Source of the DNA: an uncultured Chloroflexia bacterium
Lineage (GTDB): Bacteria > Chloroflexota > Limnocylindria > QHBO01
Direction: 5' to 3'
NCBI GenBank assembly: GCA_963814375.1
Contig: CAWFCQ010000005.1
Span: 96,001 to 160,000, forward strand
DNA: 64,000 bases
The notes under the pieces are model-generated. The model made no database searches, was not told where the DNA came from, and saw only the letters and a program-made list of their open reading frames with translations. This document shows, one piece after another, positions 10,703 through 61,664 of the stretch. The position numbers and the translations under genes are program-made. Every line of letters begins with the position of its first letter. Position 1 is the first letter of the stretch.

Positions 10703-12605
10703 TTAGCCCGCGGACTCCACTGCGAATTGCTCCTGGTAGAGCTTGGCGTAGAGGCCCTCCTGGCGAATGAGCTCGGCGTGCGTGCCGCGCTCGACGATGC
10801 GCCCGCGCGCCATCACCAGGATCTGGTCGGCGCGCAGGATCGTGCTGAGCCGATGCGCGATGGCGATCGTCGTGCGGCCCTGCTCGAGTCGCGCCAGGGC
10901 GGCCTGGATGAGCCGTTCGCTCACGGTGTCGAGGGCGGAGGTGGCCTCGTCGAGAATGAGGATCCGCGGGTCCTTGAGCAGGACGCGCGCGATGGCCACC
11001 CGCTGCTTCTCGCCGCCGGAGAGCTTGTAGCCGCGCTCGCCGACCACGGTGTCGTACGCCTCGGGCAGCTCGAGGATCCGATCGTGGATCGCGGCGGCGG
11101 TCGCGGCAGCCTCGATCTCCTCCATCGTCGCCTCGGGCTTCGCGTAGCGCAGGTTGGACAGCACCGTGTCATGGAAGAGGTAGGTCTCCTGGGTGACGAA
11201 GCCGATCTCCCGCCCCAGCGACTGGAGCCTGATGCCGCGCACATCGATCCCGTCGATCAGGATCGACCCCGCGTCGACGTCGTAGAGGCGCGGGATGAGG
11301 TAGGTCGAGGTCGTCTTTCCGCCGCCCGATGGCCCCACCAGCGCCACCAGCTGGCCCGGTGCGGCGGTGTAGGTGATGTCCGCGAGGGCGAAGGGCATGA
11401 CGCGGCTCGGCATCGCGCGGCCGTCGGCCTCGGCCTCGACCATCTCCCGGGTCGCGTCGAGCTGCCCGGTCGACCACCGGGTAGTGGAAGGAGACGCCAT
11501 CGAAGCGAACCTCGCCGCGCATGGTCTCGGGGGTCAGCGTGACGGCGTCGGGCGCATCGACGATCTCGTGGTCCATCTCGAGGTACTCGAAGATGCGGTC
11601 GAAGAGCGCGAGGGCGCCCTGGATCTCGACCTGGACGTTGAGCAGCTGTCCGAGCGGGAAGAAGAGGCGCGACTGAAGGGTGGTGAACGCCACGATCGTC
11701 CCGATCGTAACGTCCGCCTCGCCGCCGATGATGAAGCTGCCCGCCAGCAGGTAGACGAAGGCCGGCATGATGCTGAAGAAGGTGCCGATGAGGGCGAAGA
11801 ACCAGCGCCCGATCATCTGGCCGCGCACCTGGAGGTCGCCGAGGCGCTGCGACTCGGCGCGGAATCGCTCGATCGACGCCTCCTGCTGACCGAACGTCTT
11901 GCTGAGGAGGATGCCCGAGACGCTGAGCGACTCCTCGGTGATCGCGCTCATCTCGGCCATCGATCGCTGGGTCAGAGTCGAGACCTCGCGCCGAACCTTC
12001 CCGACGCGGTAGGTGATGTACGCGAAGATCGGGAGCAGGCCGAGGCTCAGGATCGTGAGGCGCCAGTCGAGGATCCACATCGCGATGACGGTCGTGGCGA
12101 CCGTGGCGAAGTTCGAGAGGATGGAGGCGGCCGTATCGGTCACCACCGCCTGGACACCGCCGACGTCGTTGGCGATGCGGCTCTGGATCTCGCCGGTGCG
12201 CGTCTCGGTGAAGAAGCGCAGCGGCATCCACTGCAGGTGGCGATAGAGGGCGAGCCGCAGATCGTTCATGACCCGCTGGCCGACGACGTTCGACAGGTAC
12301 GACTGCCACACCCCGAGGGCGCTGGTGATGATCGGCAGGACGATCATGAGCCCGCACTGGATCCAGAGCAGGCTGAGGTCCTGCGGGCCGGTCAGGTTGT
12401 CGATGACCAGCTTGAGCAGGATCGGGTTGACCACGCCGATGCTGACGGTCACCAGGATCAGGACCGCGATGAAGGCGAGCCTCGCGCGGTAGGGCCTGAA
12501 GAAGCCGGCGATCCGCCGCAGCGTCGGCCCTTCGCTCCCCGGCCGTCGGCTCAGGTCCGGCTCCGGGCCGCCACCCCACATGCCACCGCCGCCGCGCCGG
12601 GTCAT
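10703..12605 (-). CDS. ABC exporter, fused permease/ATPase; frameshift near 11480
   Basis: TMD with [19 protein letters not shown]; [33 protein letters not shown]. Confidence 0.92.
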
Positions 12606-13330
12606 TCGAGGATGATCGAGGCGAACGCCTGTGCCATGCCAATTCCCTGCGGCTCACCGACCATGCGAGCCCGCTCTTTCATCCGCTCGGTCACCTCGTC
12701 GGCCTCGACCTGGCTGGCGTGGGCCAGGATGGCGCGCAGACCGGTCTCGAAGGTGGCTTCCACGTCCACCCACAGATTGGGCTCGTCGACGCCCGAGATC
12801 AGCACCTGGCGCACCTTCCATGGCTCGAGATGCTCCTGCTTCCACAGCTCCGGGAAGTTGAGATGATCGCGTGCCGCCGGATAGACCGATGCGAGCGTGG
12901 CCTCGCCCGTGGCGAGGTGGTCGGGATGGCCGATGTACGGGTTATGGTCCAGGCGCCGCTGCGGGTTCTGGGTGATGACAAGGTCCGGTCGGAACCGGCG
13001 GATCTGCCTCGTGATGTCGCGCCGCAGGTCGAGCGACGGCTCCAGGTACCCGTCCGGGTAGCCGAGATGCACGATATCGGTCACGCCGAGGATGTCGGCA
13101 GCATCGCGCTGCTCCGCGATCCGCGTCGCCGCAAGCGCCTCCGGGGCGACGTCCGGATCCTCCGTCCCCTTCGCGCCGTCCGTGGTCACGACGTAGTCGA
13201 CCCGCGCCCCGGCGGCAGTGAGGGCCGCGATCGTCGAGCCGGCGAGAAACTCCGCGTCATCGGGATGGCTGACCACGACGAGCGCCCGCTCCAGCGGGCG
13301 GATCAGCTCATGGCGCTCCAGCGTGGTCAC
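12602..13330 (-). CDS. PIG-L/LmbE-family deacetylase with intact motifs
   Basis: SHPDDAE, TDGAKG, RIAEQRDAA, GHPDH, AHASQ. Confidence 0.9.
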   Translation of the reverse strand: MTTLERHELIRPLERALVVVSHPDDAEFLAGSTIAALTAAGARVDYVVTTDGAKGTEDPDVAPEALAATRIAEQRDAADILGVTDIVHLGYPDGYLEPSLDLRRDITRQIRRFRPDLVITQNPQRRLDHNPYIGHPDHLATGEATLASVYPAARDHLNFPELWKQEHLEPWKVRQVLISGVDEPNLWVDVEATFETGLRAILAHASQVEADEVTERMKERARMVGEPQGIGMAQAFASIILE

Positions 13331-13404
13331 GCCGTCATGCTACCCGCATCCGGCGGCCCGCTCGATTGACCGCCCAGTGCCGCGCTCACATACTGCCCCG
13401 CAGT

Positions 13405-13755
13405 ATGAGCACCGATGCGCCGGCACCACACTTCCGCCACTCCTACACGCAGGACAAGCACCAGCTCGTGACGCGCCTTCGGCGCATCGAGGGACAGGCG
13501 CGCGGCATCCAGCGCCTCGTCGAGGAGGAAGCGTACTGCCTCGACATCCTCCAGCAGGTGGAGGCCCTCACCGCGGCTGCCGACCAGGTTGGCCTGCTCC
13601 TGATCGAGGACCACATCGACGGGTGCCTCACCCATGCCATCGAGACCGGGCAGGGCCGACCCTACGTCGACGAGGTGATGACCGTGGTCCGGCGCGCGAT
13701 GGGCCGCCGTGCGAGCAGCAGGCGGTCTGATCGGCCGGCTCAGAAGGCTGACTGA
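13405..13755 (+). CDS. csoR: CsoR/RcnR-family metal-sensing repressor
   Basis: RLRRIEGQARGIQR, YCLDILQQ, EDHIDGC (Cys-His-Cys ligands). Confidence 0.88.
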   Translation: MSTDAPAPHFRHSYTQDKHQLVTRLRRIEGQARGIQRLVEEEAYCLDILQQVEALTAAADQVGLLLIEDHIDGCLTHAIETGQGRPYVDEVMTVVRRAMGRRASSRRSDRPAQKAD

Positions 13756-13790
13756 AAGGGAGTGCCGCAGGGGGGAACCACGGCACTCCC
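13754..13790 (-). terminator. GC-rich hairpin followed by TTTC on the minus strand, between convergent genes
   Basis: GGGAGTGCCG (13758-13767) / CGGCACTCCC (13781-13790) perfect 10-bp inverted repeat. Confidence 0.6.
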
Positions 13791-13841
13791 GAGCCTGAGT
13801 CTACGACTCGCTCGGAGAGCGAGTAAGCGAATTCGAACTGG

Positions 13842-16622
13842 CTACTCGCCGAACATCGTCAGCTGCTCGCCACCGCGCTCGATCAGCGGATCCAGGCCGA
13901 GGACCGGCTCCAGCCACTCCATCCGGGCACCTGGGCGCGCGGCGAGGGTGGCGAGGTGCTGCCACTTCAGCACGTGCCAGTTCTGCCGGTCCATCTCGTC
14001 GCGCAGCCACGGAGAGCGCTGAATCTTCAGGCGCAGCAGCTCGGAGCGCTCGGCGGGGATGACGAGGAACCGTGCCTGCTGGTCGCCGACGGGAATCTTC
14101 CGGCCCCGAGTGAGGACGGCGTCGCCGACCATCGCGGTCCACTCCACCTCGAACAGGAACGCCAGCTTGCCGCGCACGTACCACAGCGCGTCCACCGCTC
14201 CCAGGGCCTCGACCGGCGCCCGGATCACCAGGGGCAGGTAGACGCGGCGCTCGTCGTCGTTGAGGCGGCTCGAGAGCCGCTCTCCATCGACCACGCGGTC
14301 GTGCTCACGAGCCGCGATCCAGGACCGCAGGCCGAGCCGATGTCCGTAGTCGGCGAGTGTGGCCAGAACGCGGGCGTGGTCCTCGGTTCGTCGCGCGAGG
14401 TCGTCATCGGTCGCGAGCGAGCCGAGCTCACCCGGCGCGACATAGGCGGCCAGGCACGCTCGCACCAGCTCTTCGTCAGGAGCCGCGAGGCCGGGGAAGA
14501 GCCGGAAGATGCGGTCGAAGAACCCGGCCTCGTCGATTCGTCCGGCCGTCGCGAGCACGGACCAGGTCGCCCACTCCACCCGGTCCGCCAGCGGCTGCTC
14601 GGCCACCTCGGGGTTGCGGAGCCACCACAGCGGCCTCGCTTCGTCACCGATGCGGACGAGCGAGGGATGGTCGTCGCGCCACAGCTCCTCGCGCACCAGC
14701 GAGCCCAGCATGTGCGGCCCGCTGCCCTCGATGCGATCCTCGGGAGCGTCGTCGTCGCCAGCCCGCGTCACGGCGATACGCCGCAGCAGGCCGGAGCGAC
14801 CGAGCTCCGCGACGATGGCCGCGACCATGCGCGTCAGCCCCGCCGGCTCGCCGCGGTCGCGGAGCAGTGCCGAGGCGGCGCCATCGATGCCGGCCGCCAG
14901 CTCGGGATAGGTCAGGTGCCCACCCTCGACACCGAGACGCAGGGGGCTCGGCGTCACCGCACGCCGAAGGCGATCCTCGGCCGAGGGCTTGCGCAGGTGG
15001 AGCACGACGCCATCGCCGGTGCGGCCCGACTCGCGGTGAATGACGTCGACCAGCTCCAGGCCCGCGGCAGCACCGGCAACCGCGGTGGCGAGAAGCCGGT
15101 CCGGATCGGCATCCTCGATGAGAAGCGTGCACCAGCCGCCCGGCTTGAGGGCGCCGGCCGCAGAGCTGAGCCCGTGCCTGAGGGCAGTGGCCTCGGCCCC
15201 GGATGCCTGCCCGCCGCTGCCGAAGATGGGCTCCAGCCGCAGGGTCTCGGCCGCCTCCCTGCCGAGGATCCAGGACGTTGCCAGGTACTCGTACGACAGC
15301 TCGTCGATCGATGGGCTGGCGGGAGGCGCCGCCACGACGAGATCGACGCCCTCGGCCGGAACGTACTGTCCGACCACTGCGGGCCGTGACCTCAGCCACA
15401 GAACGTTCGCCGCACCCATCCCACCCAGCTCACCGTAGTCCGCGGCAAAGCGCGCCTCCTGGCGGTCGCGAGGCAGGGCGGCGATGGTCGCCCGCACGTC
15501 CGCGAACGAGGATTCGAAGGCGCGCCACACGTTGACCTCGCGCTGATGGCGGCTCGCCGGCTGTCGGACGTGGCCGCCCGAGATCCTCAGCGACGCGACG
15601 CGGCCCGGATAGCCGTTGAGCCGGCTTGCGGGGAGCAGGCACGCCGCGAGGGCCAGGCGCATCGCCGCGACCGTCCCGGCGTCGCGGAGCTCCGACTCGA
15701 TCTTCGAGCCGATGGCGTGGAGCGCGTAGAGGTTGCGCGCGGTGTACAGGTCGAGGAGCTCCTCGACGAGGTCATCGCGGCCGTCGAGCACCGGAAATCG
15801 TGCCCGGAGCTCGAGGTACTGCGGGCTGTGGCGCACGCCGCCGGCGGCCGCAGCGACCGGCACCGGATCGGGGCGCACGGTCGATGCGAAGCGCGGGCCA
15901 TCGCCCAGCGGCGGATCGGTGACAGCCGGCGGTGGCGATGGCGGCCCGCCCGCCTCGCCGAATGGCTCGTCGTCCGCCCCGGGCAGCGGCGGGTCGGGCT
16001 CGGTCAGGCCGACGGGCGCCGGGGGAAGGTCGTCGGCAGCCGCATCGGGAACGCTGGGTCCGTCCCCGAGCTCTCCGCGCTCGATCCCGAGCTTGGCGAG
16101 GTCGACTTCGTCCACCGGGGCGGCACGCTCCTCCGGGCCGCCGAGCGACGCGTCGCAGCTCGCGCAGCGGTAGAGCTTGCGTCCCGGAGCGTCGCCGTCC
16201 CGGGGCCAGATGAACTGGTCGGCAACGACGGGACGCCGGCAGGTCCCGCAGCGCGTCGCGTACAGCTCCTCGATGTGCTGACGCAGCGGCACGTCGACGC
16301 GGCGCGAGCTGGCGAGCTGGGCAAACGCCGCATCGAGCACCGCCGGATCCGGGGCAGACAGGAAACAGATCGCCGCGAGCTGGTTGAAGGGGCTCGGATC
16401 GGCAGCCACGGCCCGCATGCCATGGCCGATCGCGCGCCGCGCCGTCCAGCCGGTGCCCGCCCAGGGATCGAGGACGGTGTCGCCGGAGGACGCGAAGGCG
16501 CTGAGCTCGGCGTCGAGCAGGTTGTCGGCCGGTGGCGGCCGATAGCGCTCGAGAAGGGCGAGGCCGGGGCGCCGTCGCGGGAGGACGACGTGGTCGAGTC
16601 CTGTCCGCTCCGGCTCGCTCAT
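13842..16622 (-). CDS. 926-aa DNA amino-methyltransferase-like protein (degenerate) with Zn-finger insertion and C-terminal PD-(D/E)xK-like nuclease domain
   Basis: GDTVLDPWAGTG (motif I), CGTC..CASC, LYTARNL, NVW, VDLVVAAPP (motif IV position), LKPGG, VDALWY..FEVEW, C-terminal QLTMF. Confidence 0.7.
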   Translation of the reverse strand: MSEPERTGLDHVVLPRRRPGLALLERYRPPPADNLLDAELSAFASSGDTVLDPWAGTGWTARRAIGHGMRAVAADPSPFNQLAAICFLSAPDPAVLDAAFAQLASSRRVDVPLRQHIEELYATRCGTCRRPVVADQFIWPRDGDAPGRKLYRCASCDASLGGPEERAAPVDEVDLAKLGIERGELGDGPSVPDAAADDLPPAPVGLTEPDPPLPGADDEPFGEAGGPPSPPPAVTDPPLGDGPRFASTVRPDPVPVAAAAGGVRHSPQYLELRARFPVLDGRDDLVEELLDLYTARNLYALHAIGSKIESELRDAGTVAAMRLALAACLLPASRLNGYPGRVASLRISGGHVRQPASRHQREVNVWRAFESSFADVRATIAALPRDRQEARFAADYGELGGMGAANVLWLRSRPAVVGQYVPAEGVDLVVAAPPASPSIDELSYEYLATSWILGREAAETLRLEPIFGSGGQASGAEATALRHGLSSAAGALKPGGWCTLLIEDADPDRLLATAVAGAAAGLELVDVIHRESGRTGDGVVLHLRKPSAEDRLRRAVTPSPLRLGVEGGHLTYPELAAGIDGAASALLRDRGEPAGLTRMVAAIVAELGRSGLLRRIAVTRAGDDDAPEDRIEGSGPHMLGSLVREELWRDDHPSLVRIGDEARPLWWLRNPEVAEQPLADRVEWATWSVLATAGRIDEAGFFDRIFRLFPGLAAPDEELVRACLAAYVAPGELGSLATDDDLARRTEDHARVLATLADYGHRLGLRSWIAAREHDRVVDGERLSSRLNDDERRVYLPLVIRAPVEALGAVDALWYVRGKLAFLFEVEWTAMVGDAVLTRGRKIPVGDQQARFLVIPAERSELLRLKIQRSPWLRDEMDRQNWHVLKWQHLATLAARPGARMEWLEPVLGLDPLIERGGEQLTMFGE

Positions 16623-16628
16623 CGGTCG

Positions 16629-17463
16629 CTACGTCTCTTCTACCAGCTCCTCTTCGAGCTCGGGCTCACCGGAGTACTCCGGAAGGGTGGTGTCGAGCTC
16701 CTCGACCTCCTCCGAGTCCTCGTCGGCCTCCTCCACCTCGTCCTCGTCATCGTAGCGAAGCGCGCTGCCCTTGATGTACGGTCTGACGCCACCGCCTCCC
16801 TGCGTGACCGTCGGGAACGAGACCTTTCCGAAGTTCGCGGGAGCGGTGAAGACCTCGCGGATGATGATCGTGACGTCGCCGCCCGCCTCGTGGATGGTGG
16901 TGAGCGCCGCCTCGTATCGGTTCCCGCTGGTGATCAACTTGAGGAGACGAGCGGCGATTCGTGGCTCGACGCTTCCGATGGCGGACTTGCCGACACGAGC
17001 CACCAGCTCGTCGCCGCTGGCATCGAGATCGACCGCATCGCCGGGCGACAGCGGCGCGAGGACGCGCGGGGCGGCCAGGTTGATGAGACGGGCGCGCCCG
17101 GTCTTGCCCATCTCCTCGATGAAGAGGGTCGCCGGCGCCTTGTCGGTCCGGCCCTTGCCGTCGTACGGCGGGACGGTCGGCGGAGCTCAGGACACGCAGG
17201 CGTTCGACATTGCGCTGCGCGATCCGGTTCGTCGCATCCCGTTCCAGGGCCTGCTCGTAGGCATCGAGCGCCTCGCCGTGCCGATTCAGCTCGGCGAGGG
17301 CCTTGCCGAGGCGGTTGTACCCATCGATGTCGGGGCCGAGCTCGAGCAGGGCGCGGTTGGTGTCGACCGCGGCTTCCCACTCACCGCGCGTCGCCTGCGC
17401 GATCGCTGTCTCGCTCAGCTGGCGGCGTTGTCGGGTCGTGGCGTCGGCTTCTCCAAGTGCCAT
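16629..17463 (-). CDS. TPR protein with HIRAN-like C-terminal domain and acidic tail; frameshift near 17180
   Basis: YNRLGKALAEL..ALDAYEQAL..NRIAQRN TPR; EEMGKT..LSPGDAV..IGSVEPRIAARLLKLITSGNRYEA; D/E-rich tail. Confidence 0.75.
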
Positions 17464-17524
17464 GGGCGGTGAAGGCATCTCCGACTAAGGACATCCGGAC
17501 GGCGGGAAGGGCCGAGGGCGCACA

Positions 17525-17553
17525 CTTTTACCACCGGCCATGGGGGGTGTCAA
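17525..17553 (-). promoter_or_regulatory. Sigma70-type promoter for the TPR/methyltransferase-like operon
   Basis: TTGACA (17553-17548), 17-nt spacer, TAAAAG (17530-17525) preceded by TGG. Confidence 0.65.
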
Positions 17554-18351
17554 CGCGGGGCTGCCAGTCCCCCGCCCATCGCCGACGCGAGCAGGCCGAC
17601 GACCAGCCCGAGGATCATCAGCGACCCGTACTCGGTCGCGACCGCTCGACCCGACGCATCACCGCGAAGGGCGTCGACCGCGCCCGGCCCACGTGTAGAA
17701 GGCGAGCGCCATGAGGGCGGCCATCACGGCGCTCGAAATGTCGAGCAGCACGGATGCCACCCCGATCTGGATGATGACGAGGAGGTGCAGCACCGCCTGG
17801 CCGAGCGCCTGGACCCCCATCGTCCCTCGCGCCTCTGCCGAGCGAATGGCAACCGGCAGCGTGAGGCCGGCCACGAGGATGAACGGCGTGGGCCACACGC
17901 GGGCCCCGAAGAGGCCGAGGATGCCGGCTGCGGCGGTGAAGACGATCGACGTCAGCAACAGCTCGCCGATGGTGCGTCCGCCCGTACCCCGCTCGATGCG
18001 CAGCTCCAGGTAGGTCACCGCCCACAGCAGGACCGCCACGATCGGGATCAGCAGGAGGCTCAGGCCGCCTGGGATGAGACGCCCGAAGAGGGTCGCGGCG
18101 ATGCCGGCCACCGAAGGCATCGCGTATCGCGCCAGGCCGAGCTCGGAGCGCGCGGGCCCGATCACGTACACGGCGGCCAGGCCACCCAGCACCAGCTGGG
18201 CGGCGATGACCACCGCGAGCACGACCGGATCCGCGAACCAGCCGACCGCGGCGACCAGCGCCTGGAGCACGGCGATCAGGACCGCGGCGGGCCGGTCGAT
18301 GCGGCGTAGGACGGAGAGGCGCCGTCGGTCGGCCAGGACCCTCCCGATCAC
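17550..18351 (-). CDS. Polytopic membrane protein (DUF5656-like); frameshift near 17685
   Basis: GTG overlaps the polX stop; about 8 hydrophobic segments; repaired C-terminus ..AVATEYGSLMILGLVVGLL.. Confidence 0.6.
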
Positions 18352-20099
18352 GCGAGCACCTCGAGCAGCGCCGTAGCCGAGCGCGTGGCGAGGAGCTGGT
18401 CGGGCTCGAGCCAGGCACGGCGCGCGAGGTCGACGGCGTAGCGCTGCTGGTCGAGCTCCTCGGTCCGGTGCGCGTCCGAGGCGAGCGTCAGGCGCGCCCC
18501 GGCGCGCGCCGCCGCCCGCGCGAGCGGGTCGTCGAGGTCCAGCCTCGGACTGCCGTTGATCTCGAGCGCGGTGTTGCATCGCGCCGCGGCCTCGAAGACG
18601 CGTGGCCAGTCGATCGGGAGGGGGTCGCGGGTGTTGACGATACGCCCGGTCGGATGGGCAAGAACGTCGACGTGCGGATGCTCGACCGCGGCGAGCGCGC
18701 GGCGGGTGAGCTGCTCGGACGACTGGCCGCGACCGGTGTGGATGCTTGCGATGACGACCTCGAAGCGCTCGAGGAGCTCGTCCGGATAGTCGAGGGTGGC
18801 ATCCGCCCTGATCTCGAGCTCGGTGCCGTGGAGCACACGGAATGGGGCGAGCTCCGCGTTGACCCGCGCGATCTCGGCACGTTGCTCCTCGACGCGGTCG
18901 GGGAGGAGGCCGCGGGCCACCCCGAGCGAGGGTGAATGGTCGGTCAGGACGATGTACTCGTGGCCCCGATCCCGCGCCGCCCGCGCCATGACCTCGATGG
19001 AGTCGACCCCGTCGGTCCAGTTCGAGTGGGTATGGGTGTCGCCGCGAACGTCCCGGTGGGTGACGAGGTTGGGAAGCCGCCCATCCCTGGCGGCCTCGAT
19101 CTCGCCTGCCGCCTCGCGGAGCTCCGGCGGGATCCACGGGAGCCCGAGGCGCTCGTAGACGTCGGCCTCCTCGGCGTCGAGCAGCAGGTCACCGGTCTCG
19201 ATGACCTTGAAGCCCTTCTCCGAGAGCGACCAGCCACGGTCGAGGGCCATCCCGCGCAGCGCGATGTTGTGATCCGCGTTCCCCGTGAAGTGGACGAGAT
19301 GCGAGCCCCAGGTCTCCGGCGGGCAGACCATGAGGTCGACGCGCGGTCCGTCGGCGAGCAGGATGCTCGTCTTGTCGGTCCCGGCGGCCACGACCTTGTC
19401 GACCTCGCGCAGCCGGTCCAGCGCCGCGATCACCGCCGGTGGGTCATCGACGGCAGCGAGCAGGTCGATGTCACCGATCGTCGTGCGCCGCCTCCGCAGC
19501 GACCCGGCCCGCTCGATGCGGCTCACGCCCCGTGCTTCCCTCAGCTGGTCGATCAGCCCGGCGACGAGCTCATCGGCGTCGTGGAGCAGCATCCGGTCGT
19601 AAACGCGCTCCATCCGCGCGATGCCGTCGATGATGTTCGCTTCCGTTCGTTCGGAGAGGCCCTTCACGTGCCGCAGGCGGCCCTCCTCGGCGGCCGCTCG
19701 TAGCGCTTCGACGGAGTCGATGCCGAGCTCGGTGTGGAGCAGCCGGACCGTCTTGGGGCCGACGCCAGAGATCCGAAGGATCTGGAGGAGGCCGTCTGGC
19801 ACCTGCGCGCGCAGCCGCTCGTAATATTCGAGGCGTCCGGTTTCCGCCAGCTCCGCGAGCTTGGCGGTCAGTGCCTCGCCGGCGCCGGGGATCTTCGGTG
19901 GCTGGCCGCGACGGTAGAGCGCAGCGACGTCGTCGGGATAGCGCTCAACCGCATCGGCGACGCGGCGGTAGGCGACGGCCTTGTACACCACCTCGCCGAG
20001 GATCTCGAGCATGTCGCCGATCTCGTTGAAGATCCGCGCCAGCTCCGCGTTGCTGATGACGGTGCCGTCGGTGCGCGACACGCTCCTGGGTCGAGGCAT
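18348..20099 (-). CDS. polX: DNA polymerase X / PHP 3'-5' exonuclease
   Basis: HhH GVGPKT, GSLRR..GDIDLL, VDL, HFTG, PHP HTHSNWTDG, TDHS, AHPTGR, SDAH. Confidence 0.95.
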   Translation of the reverse strand: MPRPRSVSRTDGTVISNAELARIFNEIGDMLEILGEVVYKAVAYRRVADAVERYPDDVAALYRRGQPPKIPGAGEALTAKLAELAETGRLEYYERLRAQVPDGLLQILRISGVGPKTVRLLHTELGIDSVEALRAAAEEGRLRHVKGLSERTEANIIDGIARMERVYDRMLLHDADELVAGLIDQLREARGVSRIERAGSLRRRRTTIGDIDLLAAVDDPPAVIAALDRLREVDKVVAAGTDKTSILLADGPRVDLMVCPPETWGSHLVHFTGNADHNIALRGMALDRGWSLSEKGFKVIETGDLLLDAEEADVYERLGLPWIPPELREAAGEIEAARDGRLPNLVTHRDVRGDTHTHSNWTDGVDSIEVMARAARDRGHEYIVLTDHSPSLGVARGLLPDRVEEQRAEIARVNAELAPFRVLHGTELEIRADATLDYPDELLERFEVVIASIHTGRGQSSEQLTRRALAAVEHPHVDVLAHPTGRIVNTRDPLPIDWPRVFEAAARCNTALEINGSPRLDLDDPLARAAARAGARLTLASDAHRTEELDQQRYAVDLARRAWLEPDQLLATRSATALLEVLA

Positions 20100-20136
20100 C
20101 GCCGGCCATTCTACGGCCGGCTGGCGCGCGTGCCCG

Positions 20137-20295
20137 TCAGCCGATGAGGCGGCGTCCCAGCACGGTCAACCCGAAGCGCGTCGCCCGACGCCGTGGCCTG
20201 ACGCCACGTCGAGAGACCTCTCGCAGCAGCTCCTGCTCGTGCAGCTCGGCCTGGATGTCGATGAGGCTCGTCGAGCGGAAACGGTGTCGTTCCAT
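20137..20295 (-). CDS. 52-aa hypothetical small basic protein
   Basis: GGAGA RBS, ATG at 20295: MERHRFRSTSLIDIQAELHEQELLREVSRRGVRPRRRATRFGLTVLGRRLIG. Confidence 0.55.
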   Translation of the reverse strand: MERHRFRSTSLIDIQAELHEQELLREVSRRGVRPRRRATRFGLTVLGRRLIG

Positions 20296-20309
20296 GGTTG
20301 CTTCTCCGA

Positions 20310-20420
20310 TCAGATCGCGCGATGCGGCTCGTCGTCGAGCGAGGGTCGGCTGTCGCTGCCCTTCAGCGAGGCGAGGACCGCAGCCACGATCAGGATGAGG
20401 AGGATCAGCGCCAGTTCCAT
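20310..20420 (-). CDS. 36-aa single-TM small protein (absent from the ORF track)
   Basis: GGAG RBS; MELALILLILIVAAVLASLKGSDSRPSLDDEPHRAI*. Confidence 0.65.
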   Translation of the reverse strand: MELALILLILIVAAVLASLKGSDSRPSLDDEPHRAI

Positions 20421-20436
20421 GATCGTCAGCTCCGAT

Positions 20437-20516
20437 GTAACTACTATGAAGGCTCTTATCGGTTACCAGCATGGTAGGCTTCGGCAGTAACCATGTCAAG
20501 GCTATGATATGGTTAC
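20437..20516. promoter_or_regulatory. Two GTAAC-N20-GTTAC inverted-repeat operators in a divergent promoter
   Basis: GTAAC 20437-41 / GTTAC 20462-66 and GTAAC 20487-91 / GTTAC 20512-16; TATGAT -10 at 20503-08. Confidence 0.7.
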
Positions 20517-21171
20517 ATCTGAGATGACCGATCCGCACGAAGGCCGGCCCGAGCCCGCCCATCCGTCCGAGCTGTTCGTCGATTTCGCGAACCGCTCGCG
20601 GCTGTCCAGCTCGGAGCCTGCCGATCCCGCCCGGGAGCTCACGCGCCTGGCCGCGTGGCTGGCCGAGCAGTCACTGGTGACCGATGGAGCCTCGCGCGCT
20701 CGACTGAAGCCTGAGCTCCCCGCCTTCCGGGACCTGCGGGAGCTCATCCAGGACGTGGCGCAGCGGCTCGATGACGGCGCTCCCCCCACCCGCGCGCAGG
20801 TGGCCGCCATCAACGAGGTCATGCGCGAGGGCCTGCACTACCACGCGCTGCGGGCCGACGGTGCCGGCTCGCGCTTCACGATGACGCCGGTGGGCGACGA
20901 GCTCGACCAGGCGCGGTCGGCAATCGCCGGGTCGCTGGCGCACTATCTCGCCGAGCACGACCGTCGACGGCTGCGGGTGTGCGCCGACGGGACGTGCCGC
21001 TGGCTCTTCGTCGACCGCTCCCCCGGCGGGCGTCGCCGCTGGTGCGACATGCGCACCTGTGGCAATCGCGCCAAGGTCGCACGCCATCGCGCGCGGCAGA
21101 CCGCTGTAACTTCTCCTCAGCGGGACCGCGCCCGAAGGGTCAGGCGCCGATCGGGTGCCAGACCGTCTTGA
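20509..21171 (+). CDS. CGNR zinc-finger / ABATE-domain transcriptional regulator (start may be 20524)
   Basis: VDFAN; RLRVCADGTCRWLFVDRS..RRWCDMRTCGNRAKV. Confidence 0.92.
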   Translation: MVTSEMTDPHEGRPEPAHPSELFVDFANRSRLSSSEPADPARELTRLAAWLAEQSLVTDGASRARLKPELPAFRDLRELIQDVAQRLDDGAPPTRAQVAAINEVMREGLHYHALRADGAGSRFTMTPVGDELDQARSAIAGSLAHYLAEHDRRRLRVCADGTCRWLFVDRSPGGRRRWCDMRTCGNRAKVARHRARQTAVTSPQRDRARRVRRRSGARPS

Positions 21172-22129
21172 CCTCGACGAACTCGCCGATGAAGTACGGC
21201 GACTGCGCCTCGGGCGCGCGCCAGTCGTAGCGATCGAGCCCGGCGGCCGGCGGGCGCACGAAGCGCTTCACGTTCTCGACCGCGACCTCCTCGAGGGTGG
21301 CTGCCTCGTCCGGTGAGGCACCGAACGCGTCCAGCCCGTTGACGTCCATGTGGCCCGCCAGGTGCCCGACCAGCTCCTGCCGCAGCCCGGTCACCAGGTT
21401 GACGACGCCACCCGGCACGTCGGACGTCGCGAGGACTTCGGTCAGGGTCACCGCCGGGAGAGGCCGCCGCTCCGAAGCGATGACGACCGCGGCATTGCCG
21501 CTGACGACGGCCGGAGCGAGCCGGCTCACCAGGCCGAGCAGCGACGATGACTCGGGCGCGATGACTCCAACCACGCCGGTCGGCTCAGGGACGCTGAAGT
21601 TGAAATAGCTGCCGGACACCGGGTTGACCGTTCCGATCAGCTGGGTGTACTTGTCGGCCCACCCGGCGTACCACACCCAACGATCGATGGCCGCGTCGAC
21701 ATCCTTGGCTGCACGCGGCCGCGAGATGCCCTCGGCGGCGATCACCTCGGCCACGAACTGGTCGCGCCGGCCCTCCATCAGCTCCGCGATGCGGTACAGG
21801 ATCTGGCTGCGGTTGTACGCGGTCTTCCCGGCCCAGCCCGGCTGTGCCTTGCGAGCGGCCCGCACCGCCTCGCGGATGTCCTTGCGGGTTCCGCGCGACG
21901 CGTTGGCGAGCAGCTGGCCCTTCGCCCCGAAGATCTCGTACGCACGCCCGGACTCGGTGCGAGGGAAAGCGCCGCCGATGTAGAGCTTGTACGTCTTGCG
22001 CACCCCAATGCGTTCCCCGCGACCAGCCGAGCCGTTCGTCGTCGCCAGGGGCTGCGCCGACCGTTGATTGAGCACCGACGCTCCCTGAAGCCTGCCTCGC
22101 TTCGTCGCTGCTGGACGTCTTGCGGCCAT
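21140..22129 (-). CDS. Short aldehyde dehydrogenase-family protein (NAD-binding domain only)
   Basis: VRKTYKLYIGGAFPRTESGR, WYAGWADK, PEPTGVV, PGGVVNLVTG, EVKTVWHPIG; no ELGGK or catalytic Cys. Confidence 0.85.
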   Translation of the reverse strand: MAARRPAATKRGRLQGASVLNQRSAQPLATTNGSAGRGERIGVRKTYKLYIGGAFPRTESGRAYEIFGAKGQLLANASRGTRKDIREAVRAARKAQPGWAGKTAYNRSQILYRIAELMEGRRDQFVAEVIAAEGISRPRAAKDVDAAIDRWVWYAGWADKYTQLIGTVNPVSGSYFNFSVPEPTGVVGVIAPESSSLLGLVSRLAPAVVSGNAAVVIASERRPLPAVTLTEVLATSDVPGGVVNLVTGLRQELVGHLAGHMDVNGLDAFGASPDEAATLEEVAVENVKRFVRPPAAGLDRYDWRAPEAQSPYFIGEFVEVKTVWHPIGA

Positions 22130-22482
22130 CAGGAGGAACCCTCCTCGCCGTATTGCTTCGTATCGGATCGTTCGACGAGGAGTGCGTAGGCCGGTCCGGC
22201 ATCGGCGACCGGCCGATGGCGCTGACCCCGCGGGACGAGGAAGATCTCGCCCGGCGACAGATGCGCCGCCGCGCGGCCCTCGAGCTCGATCCGAAAGGCG
22301 CCGCGCCAGCAGAGGAACAGCTCGTCCTCGGCATGGTGGTGCCAGGCAAACTCGCCCTCGAGGCGTGCGAGCCGCAGTGTGGCTTCGTTCACCACCGCCA
22401 GGTCGATCGGCTTCCAGGGCTCCGTCAGCGCATCAGCCACTGCGTCGAGCGCGATCTCGCTGCCGGTATCCGGGACGATCAT
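22129..22482 (-). CDS. Cupin-domain protein
   Basis: W.P..LAVVN, GEFAWHHHAEDELF, PGEIFLVPRGQRHRP. Confidence 0.85.
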   Translation of the reverse strand: MIVPDTGSEIALDAVADALTEPWKPIDLAVVNEATLRLARLEGEFAWHHHAEDELFLCWRGAFRIELEGRAAAHLSPGEIFLVPRGQRHRPVADAGPAYALLVERSDTKQYGEEGSS

Positions 22483-24002
22483 CGGCCGCTTGATCCGTTG
22501 CCCGACAGGTCGAGATAGGCACCGAGGCCGTGGATGCCGCCCTCGCGGCCGTAGCCGGACTCCTTGTAGCCGCCGAACGGGCTGGTCGGGTCGAAGCGGT
22601 TGAAGGTGTTGGCCCACACCACTCCGGCGCGCATGGCCGAGACCATCTTGAAGATGCGGCTGCCCTTCTCGGTCCATACCCCGGCGGAGAGGCCGTAGGG
22701 CGTGTTGTTCGCCTTCTCGATCGCCTCGTCCGGCGTGCGGAAGGTGAGCACCGAGAGGACCGGCCCGAAGATCTCCTCCTGCGCGATCCGGTGGCTCTGG
22801 CTCACGCCGGTGAAGAGGGTGGGGCGGAAGAAGAAGCCCTTGTCGGGCAGCACACAGTCGGGCTGGAAGATCTCGGCGCCCTCGGCGATGCCCGACTCGA
22901 CCAGCTCCTGCACCTTCGCGAGCTGGCCGGCCGAGTTGATCGCCCCGACATCGGTGTTCTTGTCGAGCGGGTCGCCGACGCGCAGCGTGCCGAGGCGTGC
23001 CTTGAGCTTGTCGAGCAGTGGCTCGTACACCGACTCCTGCACGAAGAGGCGCGAGCCGGCGCAGCACACCTCGCCCTGGTTGAAGTAGATGCCGTTGATG
23101 ATGCCCTCGATGGCCTGGTCGAGCGGCGCGTCGTCGAAGACGATGTTCGCCGCCTTGCCGCCGAGCTCGAGCGTAACCTTCTTGCCCGTCCCCGCGAGGG
23201 CGCGCGCGATCATCTTGCCCACGGCCGTCGAGCCGGTGAACGCGACCTTGGCCACGTCGGGATGGGTGACGAGCTCCATCCCGATCTCGCCTGGCCCGGT
23301 GATGATGTTGACCACGCCCGGCGGCAGGTCGGCCTGGCGCACCACATCGGCGAAGAGGTAGGCGGTCAGCGGCGTTGTCGAGGCCGGCTTGAGGACGACG
23401 GTGTTGCCGGCGGCCAGTGCGGGAGCGATCTTCCAGGCCAGCATGAGCAGCGGGAAGTTCCACGGGATGACCTGGGCCGCGACGCCGAGGGAGCGGGGCT
23501 TGCGGTTCGGGAATGCGTACTCGAGCTTGTCCGCCCAGCCGGCGTAGTAGAAGAAGTGCGCCGCGGCGAGCGGCACGTCGACGTCACGCGACTCCTTGAT
23601 CGGCTTGCCGGAGTTCATCGACTCGACCACCGCGAACTCGCGGCTGCGCTCCTGGAGGATGCGCGCGATGCGGTAGAGGTACTTGGCGCGCTCTCGGCCC
23701 GGCAGCTTCGCCCACTCGGACCGATGCGCCTCGCGGGCGGCGGCGACCGCACGGTTGACGTCCGCCTTCGAGGCGTGCGCGACCTTGGCCAGTGGCTCCT
23801 CCGTCGCCGGGTTGATGACGGTGAACGTCTTGCGCGGCTTCGACGGGCGGAACTCGTTGCCGATGAAGAGGCCGTACTCGGGCTCGAGGTGGATGTGATC
23901 GGTCGCCTCGGGCGCCGGGGCGTACTCCCAGGGATGGTCTCCGGCGGCCAGGCCCCACGAGGCCGGGGCGGGGCGGCTCTCGGGCTTCTTGGTGAGCGTC
24001 AT
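22479..24002 (-). CDS. Aldehyde dehydrogenase
   Basis: IPWNFP, LKPA, FTGST, LELGGK, NQGEVCCAG, EEIFGPV, PFGGYKESG. Confidence 0.95.
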   Translation of the reverse strand: MTLTKKPESRPAPASWGLAAGDHPWEYAPAPEATDHIHLEPEYGLFIGNEFRPSKPRKTFTVINPATEEPLAKVAHASKADVNRAVAAAREAHRSEWAKLPGRERAKYLYRIARILQERSREFAVVESMNSGKPIKESRDVDVPLAAAHFFYYAGWADKLEYAFPNRKPRSLGVAAQVIPWNFPLLMLAWKIAPALAAGNTVVLKPASTTPLTAYLFADVVRQADLPPGVVNIITGPGEIGMELVTHPDVAKVAFTGSTAVGKMIARALAGTGKKVTLELGGKAANIVFDDAPLDQAIEGIINGIYFNQGEVCCAGSRLFVQESVYEPLLDKLKARLGTLRVGDPLDKNTDVGAINSAGQLAKVQELVESGIAEGAEIFQPDCVLPDKGFFFRPTLFTGVSQSHRIAQEEIFGPVLSVLTFRTPDEAIEKANNTPYGLSAGVWTEKGSRIFKMVSAMRAGVVWANTFNRFDPTSPFGGYKESGYGREGGIHGLGAYLDLSGNGSSGR

Positions 24003-58984: not shown

Positions 58985-59826
58985 CAGTCGCGCTCGACCT
59001 CCGCCTCGAGACGCTCGCCGAGCTCGAGCGTTCGCCGATAGGCCGCCCATACGGCGTCCGAGAAGACGGTGCGGATGCGACCCTTCTCGAGCTCGTAGAT
59101 TGCCGCCGCGCTCGTCCCGCCCGGCGACGTCACCAGGTTGCGGAGCTGGGCCGGATGCAGCTCCGACCGCGCGGCGTACTCGGCCGAGCCGATGAGGGTT
59201 TCCACCACCAGGTCGTGGGCGAGCTCGCGCGGGAAGCCGAGGTGGACGCCGGCATCGATGAGCGCCTCCATGACCGCGAAGAGATAGGTCGGTCCGGTTC
59301 CGGAGAGCGCCGTCGCCATGGCGACGAATGACTCGTCGCCCACCTCCCGCTCGTCGCCGAGCGCGCGCAGCACGCTGCGGGCGAGGTCGCGCTGACGCTT
59401 CGTGCAGGCCTCGCTCGCCGACCAGACGCTCATGCCCCGCCGGATCTGGCTGGGCGTGTTGGGCATCGCCCGCACGACGGCGGCGTGCTGGAGACCGTCG
59501 ACCAGGGTGCGCACGGTGGCGCCGGCGACGATCGAGACGACGACCTGGTCCGCCTCCAGCCTGCCGCGGAGCTCGCGCATGACGCGTACCAGCATCTGTG
59601 GCTTGACGGCGAGGACGACGACCTCTGCATCGGGCAGCGCATCCCGGTTCGCGGCAACGGGCCGGATCCCGTGTCGCTCCGCCAGGGCGTCCCGTCGATC
59701 CCGGCGCGGATGGCTCGCCGCCAGGGTCGTCGGCGCGACGGCACGGTCGGCGATGAGGCCGGCGATCATCGCCTCGGCCATGACCCCGGCGCCGACGATG
59801 CCGACCCGCATGGTCCGTCGCGTCAT
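58984..59826 (-). CDS. proC: Pyrroline-5-carboxylate reductase
   Basis: GAGVMA, LAVKPQ, RAMPNTP, TALSGTGP, VTSPGGT. Confidence 0.95.
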   Translation of the reverse strand: MTRRTMRVGIVGAGVMAEAMIAGLIADRAVAPTTLAASHPRRDRRDALAERHGIRPVAANRDALPDAEVVVLAVKPQMLVRVMRELRGRLEADQVVVSIVAGATVRTLVDGLQHAAVVRAMPNTPSQIRRGMSVWSASEACTKRQRDLARSVLRALGDEREVGDESFVAMATALSGTGPTYLFAVMEALIDAGVHLGFPRELAHDLVVETLIGSAEYAARSELHPAQLRNLVTSPGGTSAAAIYELEKGRIRTVFSDAVWAAYRRTLELGERLEAEVERD

Positions 59827-60469
59827 CGCGCCGCCTCCTGTCGCTCCCCGACCGATACCTCGCTGCCAACCAGCCGTCGGGCCGCCTCGATCTCCGCTGC
59901 CGGAGCGCCCGACCGGACGAGCAGATCCACCGCGGCCGATGCGATGCGGCGCGCGGCAGTCACGTCCCCCAGGTCGAGAAGCGCCTGACCGAGCCCGAGC
60001 GATGCCCGGCCCTGCTCGTGCTCCGCTCCGATGTCGCGCGCCTCGTCGATCGCCTCCGCATAGTACCGGCGCGCGCTGAGCGGATCGCCGGCCGCGACGC
60101 GCAGGTCGCCGATGCGACGTGCCTGGCGCGTGGCCTGGAGGGTCATCTCCGCCCGCTCGAAGTGCCACAGGGCACGATGCGCCCACACGTCGGCGGGCCA
60201 CCAGTCCCCCGTCGCCACGCCGTGCTCCATCGCCGCCACCGCGGCGGCCGCGGCGCGGCGGTGATCCGCCGCGCGCTCCGCCTCCAGGTACGGGACGGCC
60301 AGCTCGCTGCGTCGCAGCACGAGCGGGAGCTCCGGCAAGCCGCTCTCCGCAACCGGCCGGCGTGCCCCCGATAGCCAGCCGCGCCCGGGCCACGAGCCTG
60401 CTCGACGACGCCGGGCGCCGGCTCGCCCCAGGCCGGGTGCGACGATGTGGACGCGCGCCGGTCGCTCAT
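59823..60469 (-). CDS. Hypothetical TPR-like helical protein (5' part probably frameshifted)
   Basis: IGDLRVAAGD..ARRYYAEAI, ASLGLGQALLDLGD TPR-like pattern in ORF 59823-60338; ATG at 60469 after metK. Confidence 0.55.
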
Positions 60470-60479
60470 GGCGGCTGGC

Positions 60480-61664
60480 TCAGCCGACGGCGCTTCGCAG
60501 GTCGTCGACGCGGTCGACTCGCTCCCACGGAAGATCGAGGTCGGAGCGCCCGAAGTGACCATAGGCCGCCGTCTGGCGGTAGATCGGCCGCTGCAGATCG
60601 AGCTCGCGGATGATGGCGCCCGGACGCAGGTCGAATGCCTCCTGGACGATGCTGGCCAGGTGCGCGTCGGGCAGGACACCGGTGCCCCACGTCTGAACGT
60701 TGACCGCCAGCGGGTGGGCGACGCCGATGGCGTAGGCGAGCTGGATCTCGCAGCGCCTGGCGAGCCCGGCGGCGACGACGTTCTTCGCCGCGTAGCGCGC
60801 CATGTACGCTCCCGAGCGGTCCACCTTGGTCGGGTCCTTGCCGCTGAACGAGCCTCCGCCGTGACGGGCCATGCCGCCGTAGGTGTCGACGATGATCTTT
60901 CGCCCGGACAGGCCCGAGTCGCCCATCGGCCCACCGATGACGAAGCGACCGGTCGGGTTGACGAGGTGCCGCGTCTCGTCGTCGAGCAGCTCGGCCGGGA
61001 TGGCCGCCTCGACGACATGCTCGCGAACTGCCGCCGCCAGCTCGTCGATCTCCACCTCCGGGTCGTGCTGGGTGCTCACCAGCACGGTGTGCACGCGGCG
61101 CGGCACCAGGTCGGCGTCGTACTCAACCGTGATCTGGCTCTTGCCGTCGGGCCGCAGGAACGGCAGCGTGCCGGCACGGCGCACCTCGGCCAGCCGCCGC
61201 GCGACACGGTGCGCCAGCATGATCGGCATCGGCATGAGCTCATCCGACTCGTCGGTCGCGTAGCCGAACATCATTCCCTGGTCGCCGGCGCCGAGCTCGT
61301 CGGCCTCGCGTCCCTCGCGCGCCTCGAGCGCGTGATCGACGCCGCGGGCGATGTCGGGAGACTGCTCCTTGATCGCCGTCAGGGTCCCGCACGTCTCCCA
61401 GTCGAAGCCGAGCCGGCTGTCGGTGTAGCCGATCTCCCGCACCGTGCGTCGCACGACCTCCTGGACGTCAACGTAGTGGGTGGTCGTGACCTCGCCCAGC
61501 ACGATCACCATGCCGGTCGTCGTCGCCACCTCGACCGCGGAGCGCGCATCGGGATCGTGCCCGAGGACATCGTCCAGCACGGCATCGGCGACGGCGTCAC
61601 ACAGCTTGTCGGGATGGCCCTCGGTGACCGACTCCGATGTGAAGAGGGTGGACTCCGCTGGCAT
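60480..61664 (-). CDS. metK: S-adenosylmethionine synthetase
   Basis: [46 protein letters not shown]. Confidence 0.97.

Follow-up and report, generated by a model that had tools for sequence, protein, structure and literature searches.

What would a chromosomal protein do that combines a methyltransferase fold, stripped of its catalytic motif, with a restriction-endonuclease-like domain and, at its very end, a peptide of the type that binds the DNA sliding clamp? This question is raised by a protein of 926 amino acids (aa) encoded in a 64,000-nucleotide (nt) stretch of contig CAWFCQ010000005.1 from an uncultured Chloroflexia bacterium; this whole stretch is called the window below. The gene of the 926-aa protein is the last of four consecutive genes, after those for a family X DNA polymerase (PolX), a multi-pass membrane protein and a protein with tetratricopeptide repeats (TPR) and a HIRAN-like domain. 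An earlier note on this DNA had interpreted the four as one replisome-coupled surveillance and repair module. Much of that interpretation stands, namely the methylase-dead fold, the nuclease-like domain, the tail motif, the HIRAN-like fold, the core-genome location and the synteny, while the link to PolX proved to be one of adjacency only and the HIRAN sequence profile found no match. To judge from its sequence, the 926-aa protein is a candidate for a previously undescribed replication-linked DNA-processing factor. We tentatively read it, at somewhat less than an even chance, as a clamp-tethered, methylase-dead nuclease which acts with a HIRAN-like partner from a two-gene operon, the polX-membrane pair being a separate unit.

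The 926-aa protein and its parts

The gene and the domains of its product lie in the window as follows.

13842..16622, minus strand: 926-aa gene, encoding a methylase-like protein with an NmeDI_C domain
14943..16622, minus strand: methyltransferase-like Rossmann module, residues 1-560, assigned from profile, fold matches and motifs
14409..14909, minus strand: two helical or winged-helix-like modules, residues ~572-738, with family-wide RGEP and DRVE motifs
13941..14399, minus strand: NmeDI_C (PF27126) restriction-endonuclease-like domain, residues 742-894, with D748, D811, E825 and E827
13851..13865, minus strand: QLTMF, residues 920-924 of 926, a beta-clamp-binding-type motif in a flexible C-terminal tail

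The protein is identical to the cluster representative P0001, and an exhaustive family search returned 1236 representative clusters at expectation values (E) up to 0.001. Two alignments underlie the counts given here. The first has 59 rows, the query and 58 listed relatives, which comprise 54 of the 63 listed representatives of at least 700 aa and four close homologues; the second holds 120 close homologues. The family spans several classes of Chloroflexota, with relatives in Dehalococcoidales, Anaerolineae and Chloroflexota records, and its nearest Atlas clusters are commonest in Chloroflexota. No description of it was found in the literature, subscription journals and supplements lying outside that search.

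In the copies of Pfam and NCBIfam used, nothing rose above noise for the 926-aa protein (0 Pfam families). Its N-terminus aligns to motif I of M.RsrI-type enzymes, and the family profile matches N6/N4 DNA methylases, among them 2zie (TTHA0409-type, E 8.9e-12) and M.RsrI. DPWAGTG at residues 52-58 (motif I) and D75, which align to M.RsrI and 2zie, recur in 119/120 close homologues or nearly so. Motif IV, in contrast, reads AAPPASP (residues 431-437) without the (D/N/S)PP(Y/F/W) signature, and it varies freely among the 120 close homologues. A DPPY motif is found in only three of the 59 aligned relatives, all of them with full PF01555 matches; the PF01555 cut-off was reached by 5 of the 30 relatives scanned and not by the window protein. 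The four zinc-ribbon cysteines C125, C128, C153 and C156 are kept in 57-59 of the 59 rows and are followed by a disordered insert rich in Pro, Asp and Glu (residues 186-262, positions 15837-16067; residues 192-251 in the model). This insert occurs in an initial alignment only in the window protein and in P0241, and it is the least conserved part among the close homologues (0.65).

The AlphaFold model of the protein has a mean predicted local distance difference test score (pLDDT) of 86.6 and a predicted template modelling score of 0.85. It is composed of the Rossmann module with the zinc ribbon, the disordered insert, the two helical modules, the C-terminal unit and a floppy tail. Whole-chain fold searches with this model returned methyltransferases only (best E in the PDB 1.2e-3), and the best match in a viral fold search was an N4-cytosine methylase (E 2.7e-6). 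Within the helical modules R590, P593 and E683 are nearly invariant; the winged-helix label is our reading of the predicted topology and not the result of a tool. In PADLOC the window protein matched the MTase_II model (E 6.5e-9) and the distant relative P0363 the PglXI model (E 3.2e-49).

The C-terminal domain is named NmeDI_C in the Atlas and corresponds to PF27126.1 (Pfam 38), an assignment precomputed on the identical P0001 and on many homologues. Residues 748-892 align to the C-terminal half of a plasmid-encoded 'type II restriction endonuclease' (hhalign probability 96%, E 3.3e-9). Both share the pattern D...FEVE, which is followed by K in the plasmid enzyme and by W (W828) in the window protein, and a tblastn search with the domain found 74 plasmid records. 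The modelled unit has the order helix-strand-strand-strand-helix-strand, with D748 in helix 1, D811 at the start of strand 2, and E825 and E827 in strand 3. Such a placement of acidic residues is the arrangement known for PD-(D/E)xK nucleases. PDB sequence searches and whole-chain fold searches gave nothing for this domain, the fold searches being dominated by the methylase part. The name-giving R.NmeDI, 351 aa long, has been characterised as a type II restriction endonuclease, whose catalytic residues are unassigned in the available passages of PMC2095814.

Among the 120 close homologues, D811 and E825 are present in every sequence and E/D827 in 119 while adjacent positions vary, which argues for selection on these three residues. 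Across the wider family the triad D811/E825/E827 is kept in 25 of the 59 aligned members, including 12/12 rows of the clade that holds the window protein, and one clade of 29 rows lacks it; the tree requires at least 3-5 changes. The trees were rooted on the three DPPY proteins and included 57 of the 59 rows, P0359 and P0368 being dropped as frameshifted-looking. FastTree placed all dead-methylase proteins in one clade (support 100) and the window protein in its 12-row clade (support 99). The IQ-TREE result, available as a summary, agreed in the triad-change counts and in the starred clades surrounding the window protein. Probably the methylase died first and the nuclease then decayed repeatedly in some lineages, that of the window not being among them.

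The third element is the tail. The available passages of PMC6511837 give QL(D/S)LF as the consensus of beta-clamp partners and place it usually in flexible terminal regions. In our model the pLDDT drops from a block mean of 77 (residues 911-920) to 47 (residues 921-926), with residues 923-926 below 50. The segment RGGEQLT(M/I)FGE is invariant in 120/120 close homologues, and no region of the protein is more conserved than the tail (mean majority fraction 0.93 versus 0.84-0.85 for the folded domains), and Q920 is present in 55 of the 59 aligned family members. The terminal 30 aa of the 63 full-length representatives were compared with 1645 internal 30-residue windows of the same proteins. The relaxed motif Q[LIVM].[LIVMF][LIVMFW] occurs in 50/63 tails versus 13/1645 internal windows, and the strict motif QL.[LM]F in 25/63 versus 0/1645. 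Of the 13 proteins without a tail motif, several look truncated or frameshifted and two are active methylases.

By these sequence features, the 926-aa protein descends from methyltransferase-nuclease fusion enzymes of the restriction-modification (R-M) type. Its methyltransferase fold retains the motifs of the S-adenosylmethionine (SAM) pocket, motif I and D75, and has lost the catalytic motif IV, and its tail fits the beta-clamp-binding consensus as judged by pattern. The pseudo-methyltransferase assignment of the earlier note is thus borne out by a retained motif I, a lost (D/N/S)PP(Y/F) and the fold matches to methyltransferases. Its QL.LF-type tail motif is likewise conserved, enriched at the C-terminus and situated in a flexible tail. 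The nuclease assignment holds as far as a restriction-endonuclease-like domain goes (PF27126, the hhalign match and the topology); the canonical lysine is absent and the triad is lost in 34/59 members.

The HIRAN-like partner and the shared operon

The gene directly upstream of the 926-aa gene and the control elements of the pair occupy these positions.

16629..17463, minus strand: TPR-HIRAN-like gene, its start at 17463 backed by homologues
17179..17463, minus strand: TPR domain, residues 1-95 (Pfam TPR_1, E 1.7e-7; helices at 2-95 in the model)
17163..17166, minus strand: one-base insertion that splits the TPR-HIRAN-like gene, from its frames compared with the intact P0121
16833..17105, minus strand: HIRAN-like six-stranded beta domain, residues ~120-210 of the intact protein (model pLDDT 76-90)
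16632..16811, minus strand: conserved predicted-disordered segment and acidic C-terminal tail, residues ~218-277 (pLDDT <50)
17525..17553, minus strand: sigma-70-type promoter that precedes the TPR-926aa pair (TTGACA, 17-nt spacer, TAAAAG; extended -10 with TG)
13758..13790, minus strand: terminator-like hairpin after the 926-aa gene (G+C-rich, 13-bp stem, 7-nt loop, then UUU)

The TPR gene spans 835 nt, which equals 277 codons, a stop and one surplus base, and intact homologues of 277 aa exist at 99% identity (P0121-P0123). The model of the protein has a mean pLDDT of 72 and consists of five helices (1-95), a disordered linker, six strands with a helix, and a disordered end. In Foldseek, the best non-TPR match of the beta domain was 3k2y (E 6.9e-4, template modelling (TM) score 0.73), the bacterial lp_0118, which we take to be a HIRAN family member. 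The HIRAN domains of HLTF (4s0n, 4xzg, 6kcs and 4xzf) were matched at E 3e-3 to 1.5e-2, with TM 0.55-0.61 for the first three (4s0n at E 3.2e-3 and TM 0.55, 6kcs at TM 0.61), and Rad5 (6l8o) was matched as well. The HIRAN domain is described as a six-stranded barrel in the available passages of PMC4666394.

Sequence comparisons did not lead to the same family. The Pfam HIRAN profile (PF08797) was matched by 0/32 members of the TPR-protein family at E up to 10, a sequence-profile search of the PDB returned only TPR matches for this protein, and the Protein Atlas held only unnamed Chloroflexota clusters for the HIRAN-like part. Because the Pfam profile and the PDB sequence searches gave no HIRAN, 'HIRAN-like by fold' is a fair label, so that the HIRAN-like domain proposed in the earlier note survives as a fold resemblance to HLTF/Rad5 and 3k2y and not as a match to the sequence profile.

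The C-terminal part of the TPR protein is strongly conserved, with many invariant columns in residues 227-276 among 32 sequences of 62-89% identity. In P0121, residues 227-277 (window positions 16632-16784) contain a basic stretch RPY.KG..LRYDD and then an acidic run ending EEL.EE, and both are almost invariant. TPR domains that bind acidic C-terminal peptides of the MEEVD type were among the fold matches of the protein; therefore, the tail might fold back on its own TPR domain or on a partner. A complex prediction for the full 926-aa protein with TPR-protein residues 204-277 (score 0.00, mark 0.32) speaks neither for nor against binding.

Both genes appear to be expressed from one promoter, which comprises TTGACA (17553..17548), a 17-nt spacer, TAAAAG (17530..17525) and the TG of an extended -10 (17533..17532). 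It was not listed by a strict consensus scan, because the -10 hexamer lacks a T at position 6. CGTTGACA, TG and the -10 element TA.AA show no or almost no variation in 23/23 aligned upstream regions, and the promoter is the best-conserved part of an otherwise variable intergenic region upstream of the TPR gene. A script found TTGACA within 260 nt upstream of the start in 38/38 loci scanned. The aligned upstream regions also share an ATG and an upstream GGAG at the start of the TPR gene. In the 5' leader (17461-17519), a conserved GCGC(C/T)(C/T)T box stands at the beginning and recurs in the equivalent leaders of relatives; a leader hairpin GGCCG...CGGCC shows unconvincing covariation, with a double change in 1/5 pairs.

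From the TPR stop to the 926-aa start there are 6 nt (16623..16628), and this spacing is 0-31 nt in 70/71 loci, the exception (L055) having a truncated TPR frame. Downstream of the 926-aa stop, a 101-nt segment folds at -42.2 kcal/mol (z -3.9), a value reached by 0/200 shuffles, and a stricter terminator scan found 0 sites. The TTGACA-N17 promoter and the 6-nt spacing described in the earlier note were therefore found again, the promoter being conserved in all the regions aligned or scanned. The terminator it had placed after the two genes is a strong G+C-rich hairpin with only three U, and is absent from the strict scan.

The polX-membrane pair, gene order and genomic setting

The two genes further upstream form a second pair.

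18348..20099, minus strand: PolX, with a family X DNA polymerase (residues ~16-330) and a PHP domain (~348-580)
17550..18351, minus strand: multi-pass membrane protein, from its frames and an intact 266-aa homologue (L001:6258-7058)

PolX is readily recognised. It matches NCBIfam NF006375 (E 7.6e-141, 470.5 bits against a cut-off of 426) and the Pfam families HHH_8, HHH_5, DNA_pol_B_thumb and PHP, and it aligns over its full length with Thermus thermophilus PolX (3b0x, E 6e-122), including the GD.D and VDL palm motifs. The membrane protein matched no Pfam or NCBIfam family, and in PADLOC neither PolX nor the membrane or TPR protein had a match. The GTG start of the membrane gene overlaps the polX stop (GTGA, 18348-18351). 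An NTGA start/stop overlap of this kind is present in 47/61 loci, the extrapolated start being a non-start codon in the other 14. An extra base near 17682 interrupts the membrane gene in the window, and the real C-terminal part is encoded in the frame ending at 17550. Its TGA stop sits inside the -35 hexamer TTGACA (17548-17553) of the TPR-926aa promoter.

For the comparison of gene order, 80 related loci were kept, all of them close relatives from one class with at least 64% identity (from a 12-sequence alignment). Seventy of these, like the closest relatives of the 926-aa protein, are titled Chloroflexota or Candidatus Limnocylindria; the remaining 10 bear different bin names or 'uncultured bacterium' and agree in gene order at 65-81% identity. 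An upstream flank of at least 3.6 kb was available for 61 loci, and every one of them has polX, the membrane gene and the TPR gene upstream of the 926-aa gene, with order and strand unchanged. The flanking genes are less constant: a CGNR/ABATE gene is adjacent upstream in 43/57 loci and a PIG-L gene lies downstream in 60/72, and the block therefore outlasts both flanks. These data support two tightly coupled pairs, polX-membrane with overlapping stop and start, and TPR-926aa with its own promoter and a gap of at most 31 nt. A functional tie between the two pairs is a hypothesis.

The setting of the four genes is a housekeeping region in a Candidatus Limnocylindria (Chloroflexota) chromosome. 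The G+C content is 0.70-0.73 at the locus versus 0.65-0.74 across the window (~70%), with no compositional shift. Among the 43 neighbouring open reading frames (ORFs) scanned there was no integrase, transposase or restriction gene, every named one being a housekeeping gene; the functions include fatty-acid synthesis, acetyl-CoA carboxylase, a class I tRNA synthetase, ABC transporters, SAM synthetase and aldehyde dehydrogenase. No active cognate methylase was found among the neighbouring ORFs scanned, no dnaN gene lies within the window, and a search of 50,697 phage records gave no match. The locus is thus core genome and not an R-M or defence island.

On these points the comparison agrees closely with the earlier note, which had described four co-oriented genes (all on the minus strand, at the coordinates it gave), no integrase, transposase, restriction gene or compositional shift nearby, and a core-genome location in place of an R-M island, for which the even G+C, the housekeeping neighbours and the lack of phage matches speak. 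It had also named conserved synteny and a patchy, defence-island-like distribution as the points on which its proposal would turn: the four-gene order is kept in the 61 Limnocylindria loci, and the position among housekeeping genes is fixed in all of them. Its tie of the 926-aa protein to PolX fared worse, as it comes down to adjacency within one class with largely syntenic flanks, across a separate promoter.

Three genes within 7 kb, the TPR-HIRAN-like gene, the membrane gene and an ABC transporter further downstream, are each split in the window by an apparent single extra base, and all are intact single frames in relatives. The transporter, with its transmembrane and nucleotide-binding domains (TMD/NBD), is broken between frames at 11169-11500 and is one frame in L001. 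So close together, the three single-base frameshifts look like assembly errors rather than biology; each of them (near 17163-17166, ~17682 and 11169-11500) may be an assembly indel error or a real pseudogenisation.

Several other features of the window were recorded. An Rfam scan over 13300..20600 gave a single match far under its gathering score, SECIS_2 at 18368-18418 on the minus strand, at the junction of polX and the membrane gene (29.1 bits against a gathering score of 70, E 0.014), which is probably due to chance. Divergent from polX stands a gene for a putative stress regulator with an ABATE/CGNR zinc finger (20509-21171, plus strand), with promoter-like sites on both strands between the two genes (20471-20508). 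At 21140-22129 and 22129-23463, an aldehyde-dehydrogenase fragment (profile positions 15-232 of 461) adjoins an ORF with a cupin domain, and a full-length aldehyde dehydrogenase lies beside them at 22479-24002; this may be a broken or overlapping-frame region. Immediately downstream of the SAM synthetase gene, the minus strand encodes a second small TPR protein (59823-60479 and 60480-61664).

Candidate roles and known systems

If the 926-aa protein is a clamp-tethered nuclease, as we tentatively propose, its tail would dock it to DnaN clamps that remain on DNA after replication or repair, and it would bind the DNA via its dead methylase, zinc ribbon and helical modules. SAM may be a ligand, and methylation would not be possible. 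The nuclease-like domain would then nick or cut, and the HIRAN-like partner might recognise a DNA 3' end or a fork structure and so steer or restrain the enzyme. The polX-membrane pair may provide gap filling and 3'-end trimming, for which conserved adjacency is the sole argument. A more ambitious version, to which we give little credence, would make the protein a lineage-specific, clamp-tethered nicking enzyme of Chloroflexota, domesticated from an R-M fusion, in which the SAM-binding dead methylase reads a feature of new DNA, the HIRAN-like protein senses the 3' end and PolX refills the gap. The feature read may be a mismatch, a misincorporated or modified base, or the methylation state.

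A number of findings weigh against the proposal of a clamp-tethered nuclease. The acidic triad is lost in 34/59 aligned members while the tail motif persists, and therefore the family-wide function need not be cleavage. A tryptophan stands where the plasmid relative has its lysine, and the canonical (D/E)xK lysine is absent. That NmeDI_C is the catalytic domain of R.NmeDI is not stated in the available passages of PMC2095814. The HIRAN assignment of the partner derives from the fold alone, at modest E-values and in a model of mean pLDDT 72, with the Pfam profile finding none of the family members. Two of the four genes of the locus are frameshifted in the window, and all 80 loci belong to one class in which the flanks are largely syntenic too. 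Finally, the TPR-926aa pair has its own conserved promoter, and co-regulation with polX is not implied.

Part of this evidence would suit a non-catalytic pseudoenzyme, that is, a scaffold or regulator that sits on the clamp and binds DNA, serving for instance replication, the organisation of the chromosome or the recruitment of other factors, with a nuclease-like domain that only binds DNA. Judged by motif IV, methyl transfer is certainly lost, and the zinc ribbon (57-59/59), the motifs of the helical modules and Q920 (55/59) have outlasted an acidic triad that is kept in 25/59 members, was lost at least 3-5 times and lacks the canonical lysine. There is also a precedent in ImuB, an inactive polymerase which serves as a clamp-binding hub according to the available passages of PMC10421592 and PMC11791113. 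The triad is, however, kept in 12/12 rows of the window's own clade, and D811 and E825 (120/120) and E/D827 (119/120) persist while neighbouring positions vary, so we regard the pseudoenzyme as unlikely, though deserving some weight. Further down the scale, a defence enzyme seems improbable. It would be an orphan, methylase-dead restriction-type nuclease, Type IV-like or self-limited, which finds replicating foreign DNA via the clamp. Descent from a methylase-nuclease fusion, the resemblance to PglXI and Type II methylases in PADLOC and a C-terminal domain common to plasmid-borne restriction endonucleases would all agree with such a role. Nevertheless, no cognate active methylase, mobile-element gene or compositional shift is nearby, the position among housekeeping genes is fixed in 61/61 loci, the phage records gave 0 matches, and the plasmid matches cover the domain only and come from unrelated Firmicutes. 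Moreover, conservation is high and even across the class, unlike defence genes, which are usually distributed patchily.

The relation between the two pairs is a different question. That polX-membrane and TPR-926aa are operons with no functional relation, which stand side by side only because Limnocylindria inherited this gene order, comes just short of an even chance. A conserved promoter separates the pairs, and it is the membrane gene, not the TPR gene, that is translationally coupled to polX (NTGA in 47/61). All 80 loci come from one class, with flanks that are mostly conserved as well (43/57 and 60/72), and Dehalococcoidales and Anaerolineae records also contain relatives of the 926-aa protein, the neighbourhoods compared being those of Limnocylindria. 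On the other side, the block is present in 61/61 loci although both flanks break in part, and PolX, the HIRAN-like protein and the clamp-motif protein would share a theme of DNA ends and repair.

The clamp-tethered nuclease, if confirmed, would matter since sliding-clamp partners define which activities travel with replication. The bacterial clamp partners listed in the available passages of PMC9690074 are polymerases, ligase, MutS/MutL, NucS, Nei2, XthA and SocB, without a protein derived from a methylase or restriction enzyme. The present family couples a disabled methylase, a restriction-type nuclease-like domain and a clamp motif, all in candidate roles, across several Chloroflexota classes. 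It would clearly exemplify how a selfish or defence enzyme can be domesticated for the maintenance of the chromosome, and would add a player in DNA repair to an abundant, almost uncultured soil lineage. A domesticated restriction-type nuclease also recalls MutH. Were the nicking-enzyme version true, it would constitute a third independent route of post-replicative strand-directed repair beside MutS/MutL(/MutH) and NucS.

Among known proteins, the closest in architecture are the active N6/N4 methyltransferase-NmeDI_C fusions (P0363, P0372 and P0381; Atlas clusters with PF01555 and PF27126), which align over the full length at 21-25% identity. They have the same order of motif I, zinc ribbon, motif IV, helical modules and an NmeDI_C domain with D...EVE. 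In contrast to the window protein with its AAPPASP, they keep GxG and DPPY and are presumably working methylases, and only 1/3 has the relaxed tail motif in its last 30 aa. R.NmeDI and the plasmid enzymes (e.g. QFG64299.1 from Listeria plasmid CP044431.1) share the homologous PF27126 C-terminal domain; these are stand-alone proteins of 351-427 aa, lack a methylase-like module and a QL.LF tail, and are encoded on plasmids or in R-M loci.

The other genes of the locus compare as follows. The window PolX is a full-length orthologue of bacterial PolX (Thermus thermophilus, Deinococcus radiodurans) with polymerase and PHP domains. The enzyme itself is ordinary, and the unusual part is its conserved translational coupling to an uncharacterised membrane protein. 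The six-stranded beta barrel and helix of the HLTF/Rad5 HIRAN domains and of 3k2y resemble the predicted beta domain of the TPR protein (TM 0.55-0.73 over 94-103 aligned columns) at only 7-16% identity and without a Pfam HIRAN match for the window domain. In HLTF/Rad5, HIRAN is joined to a SWI/SNF ATPase, whereas the window domain is fused to a short TPR array and an acidic tail.

In concept, NucS/EndoMS of Actinobacteria and Archaea is similar to the 926-aa protein in that it combines a restriction-endonuclease fold with a C-terminal clamp-binding motif (the available passages of PMC9690074 report such a motif for NucS) and belongs to the core genome. Its size and architecture are different, the 926-aa protein has no recognisable mismatch-binding domain, and the NucS family signature was matched there in neither Pfam nor NCBIfam. 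ImuB, the catalytically dead Y-family polymerase and clamp-binding hub, is likewise a pseudoenzyme that retains its parental fold together with a clamp motif, as the available passages of PMC10421592 and PMC11791113 describe it. Here, the parental fold is a polymerase rather than a methyltransferase, and ImuB has no nuclease-like domain. By analogy of working logic, the 926-aa protein would thus resemble both clamp-tethered nucleases such as NucS and clamp-binding pseudoenzymes such as ImuB.

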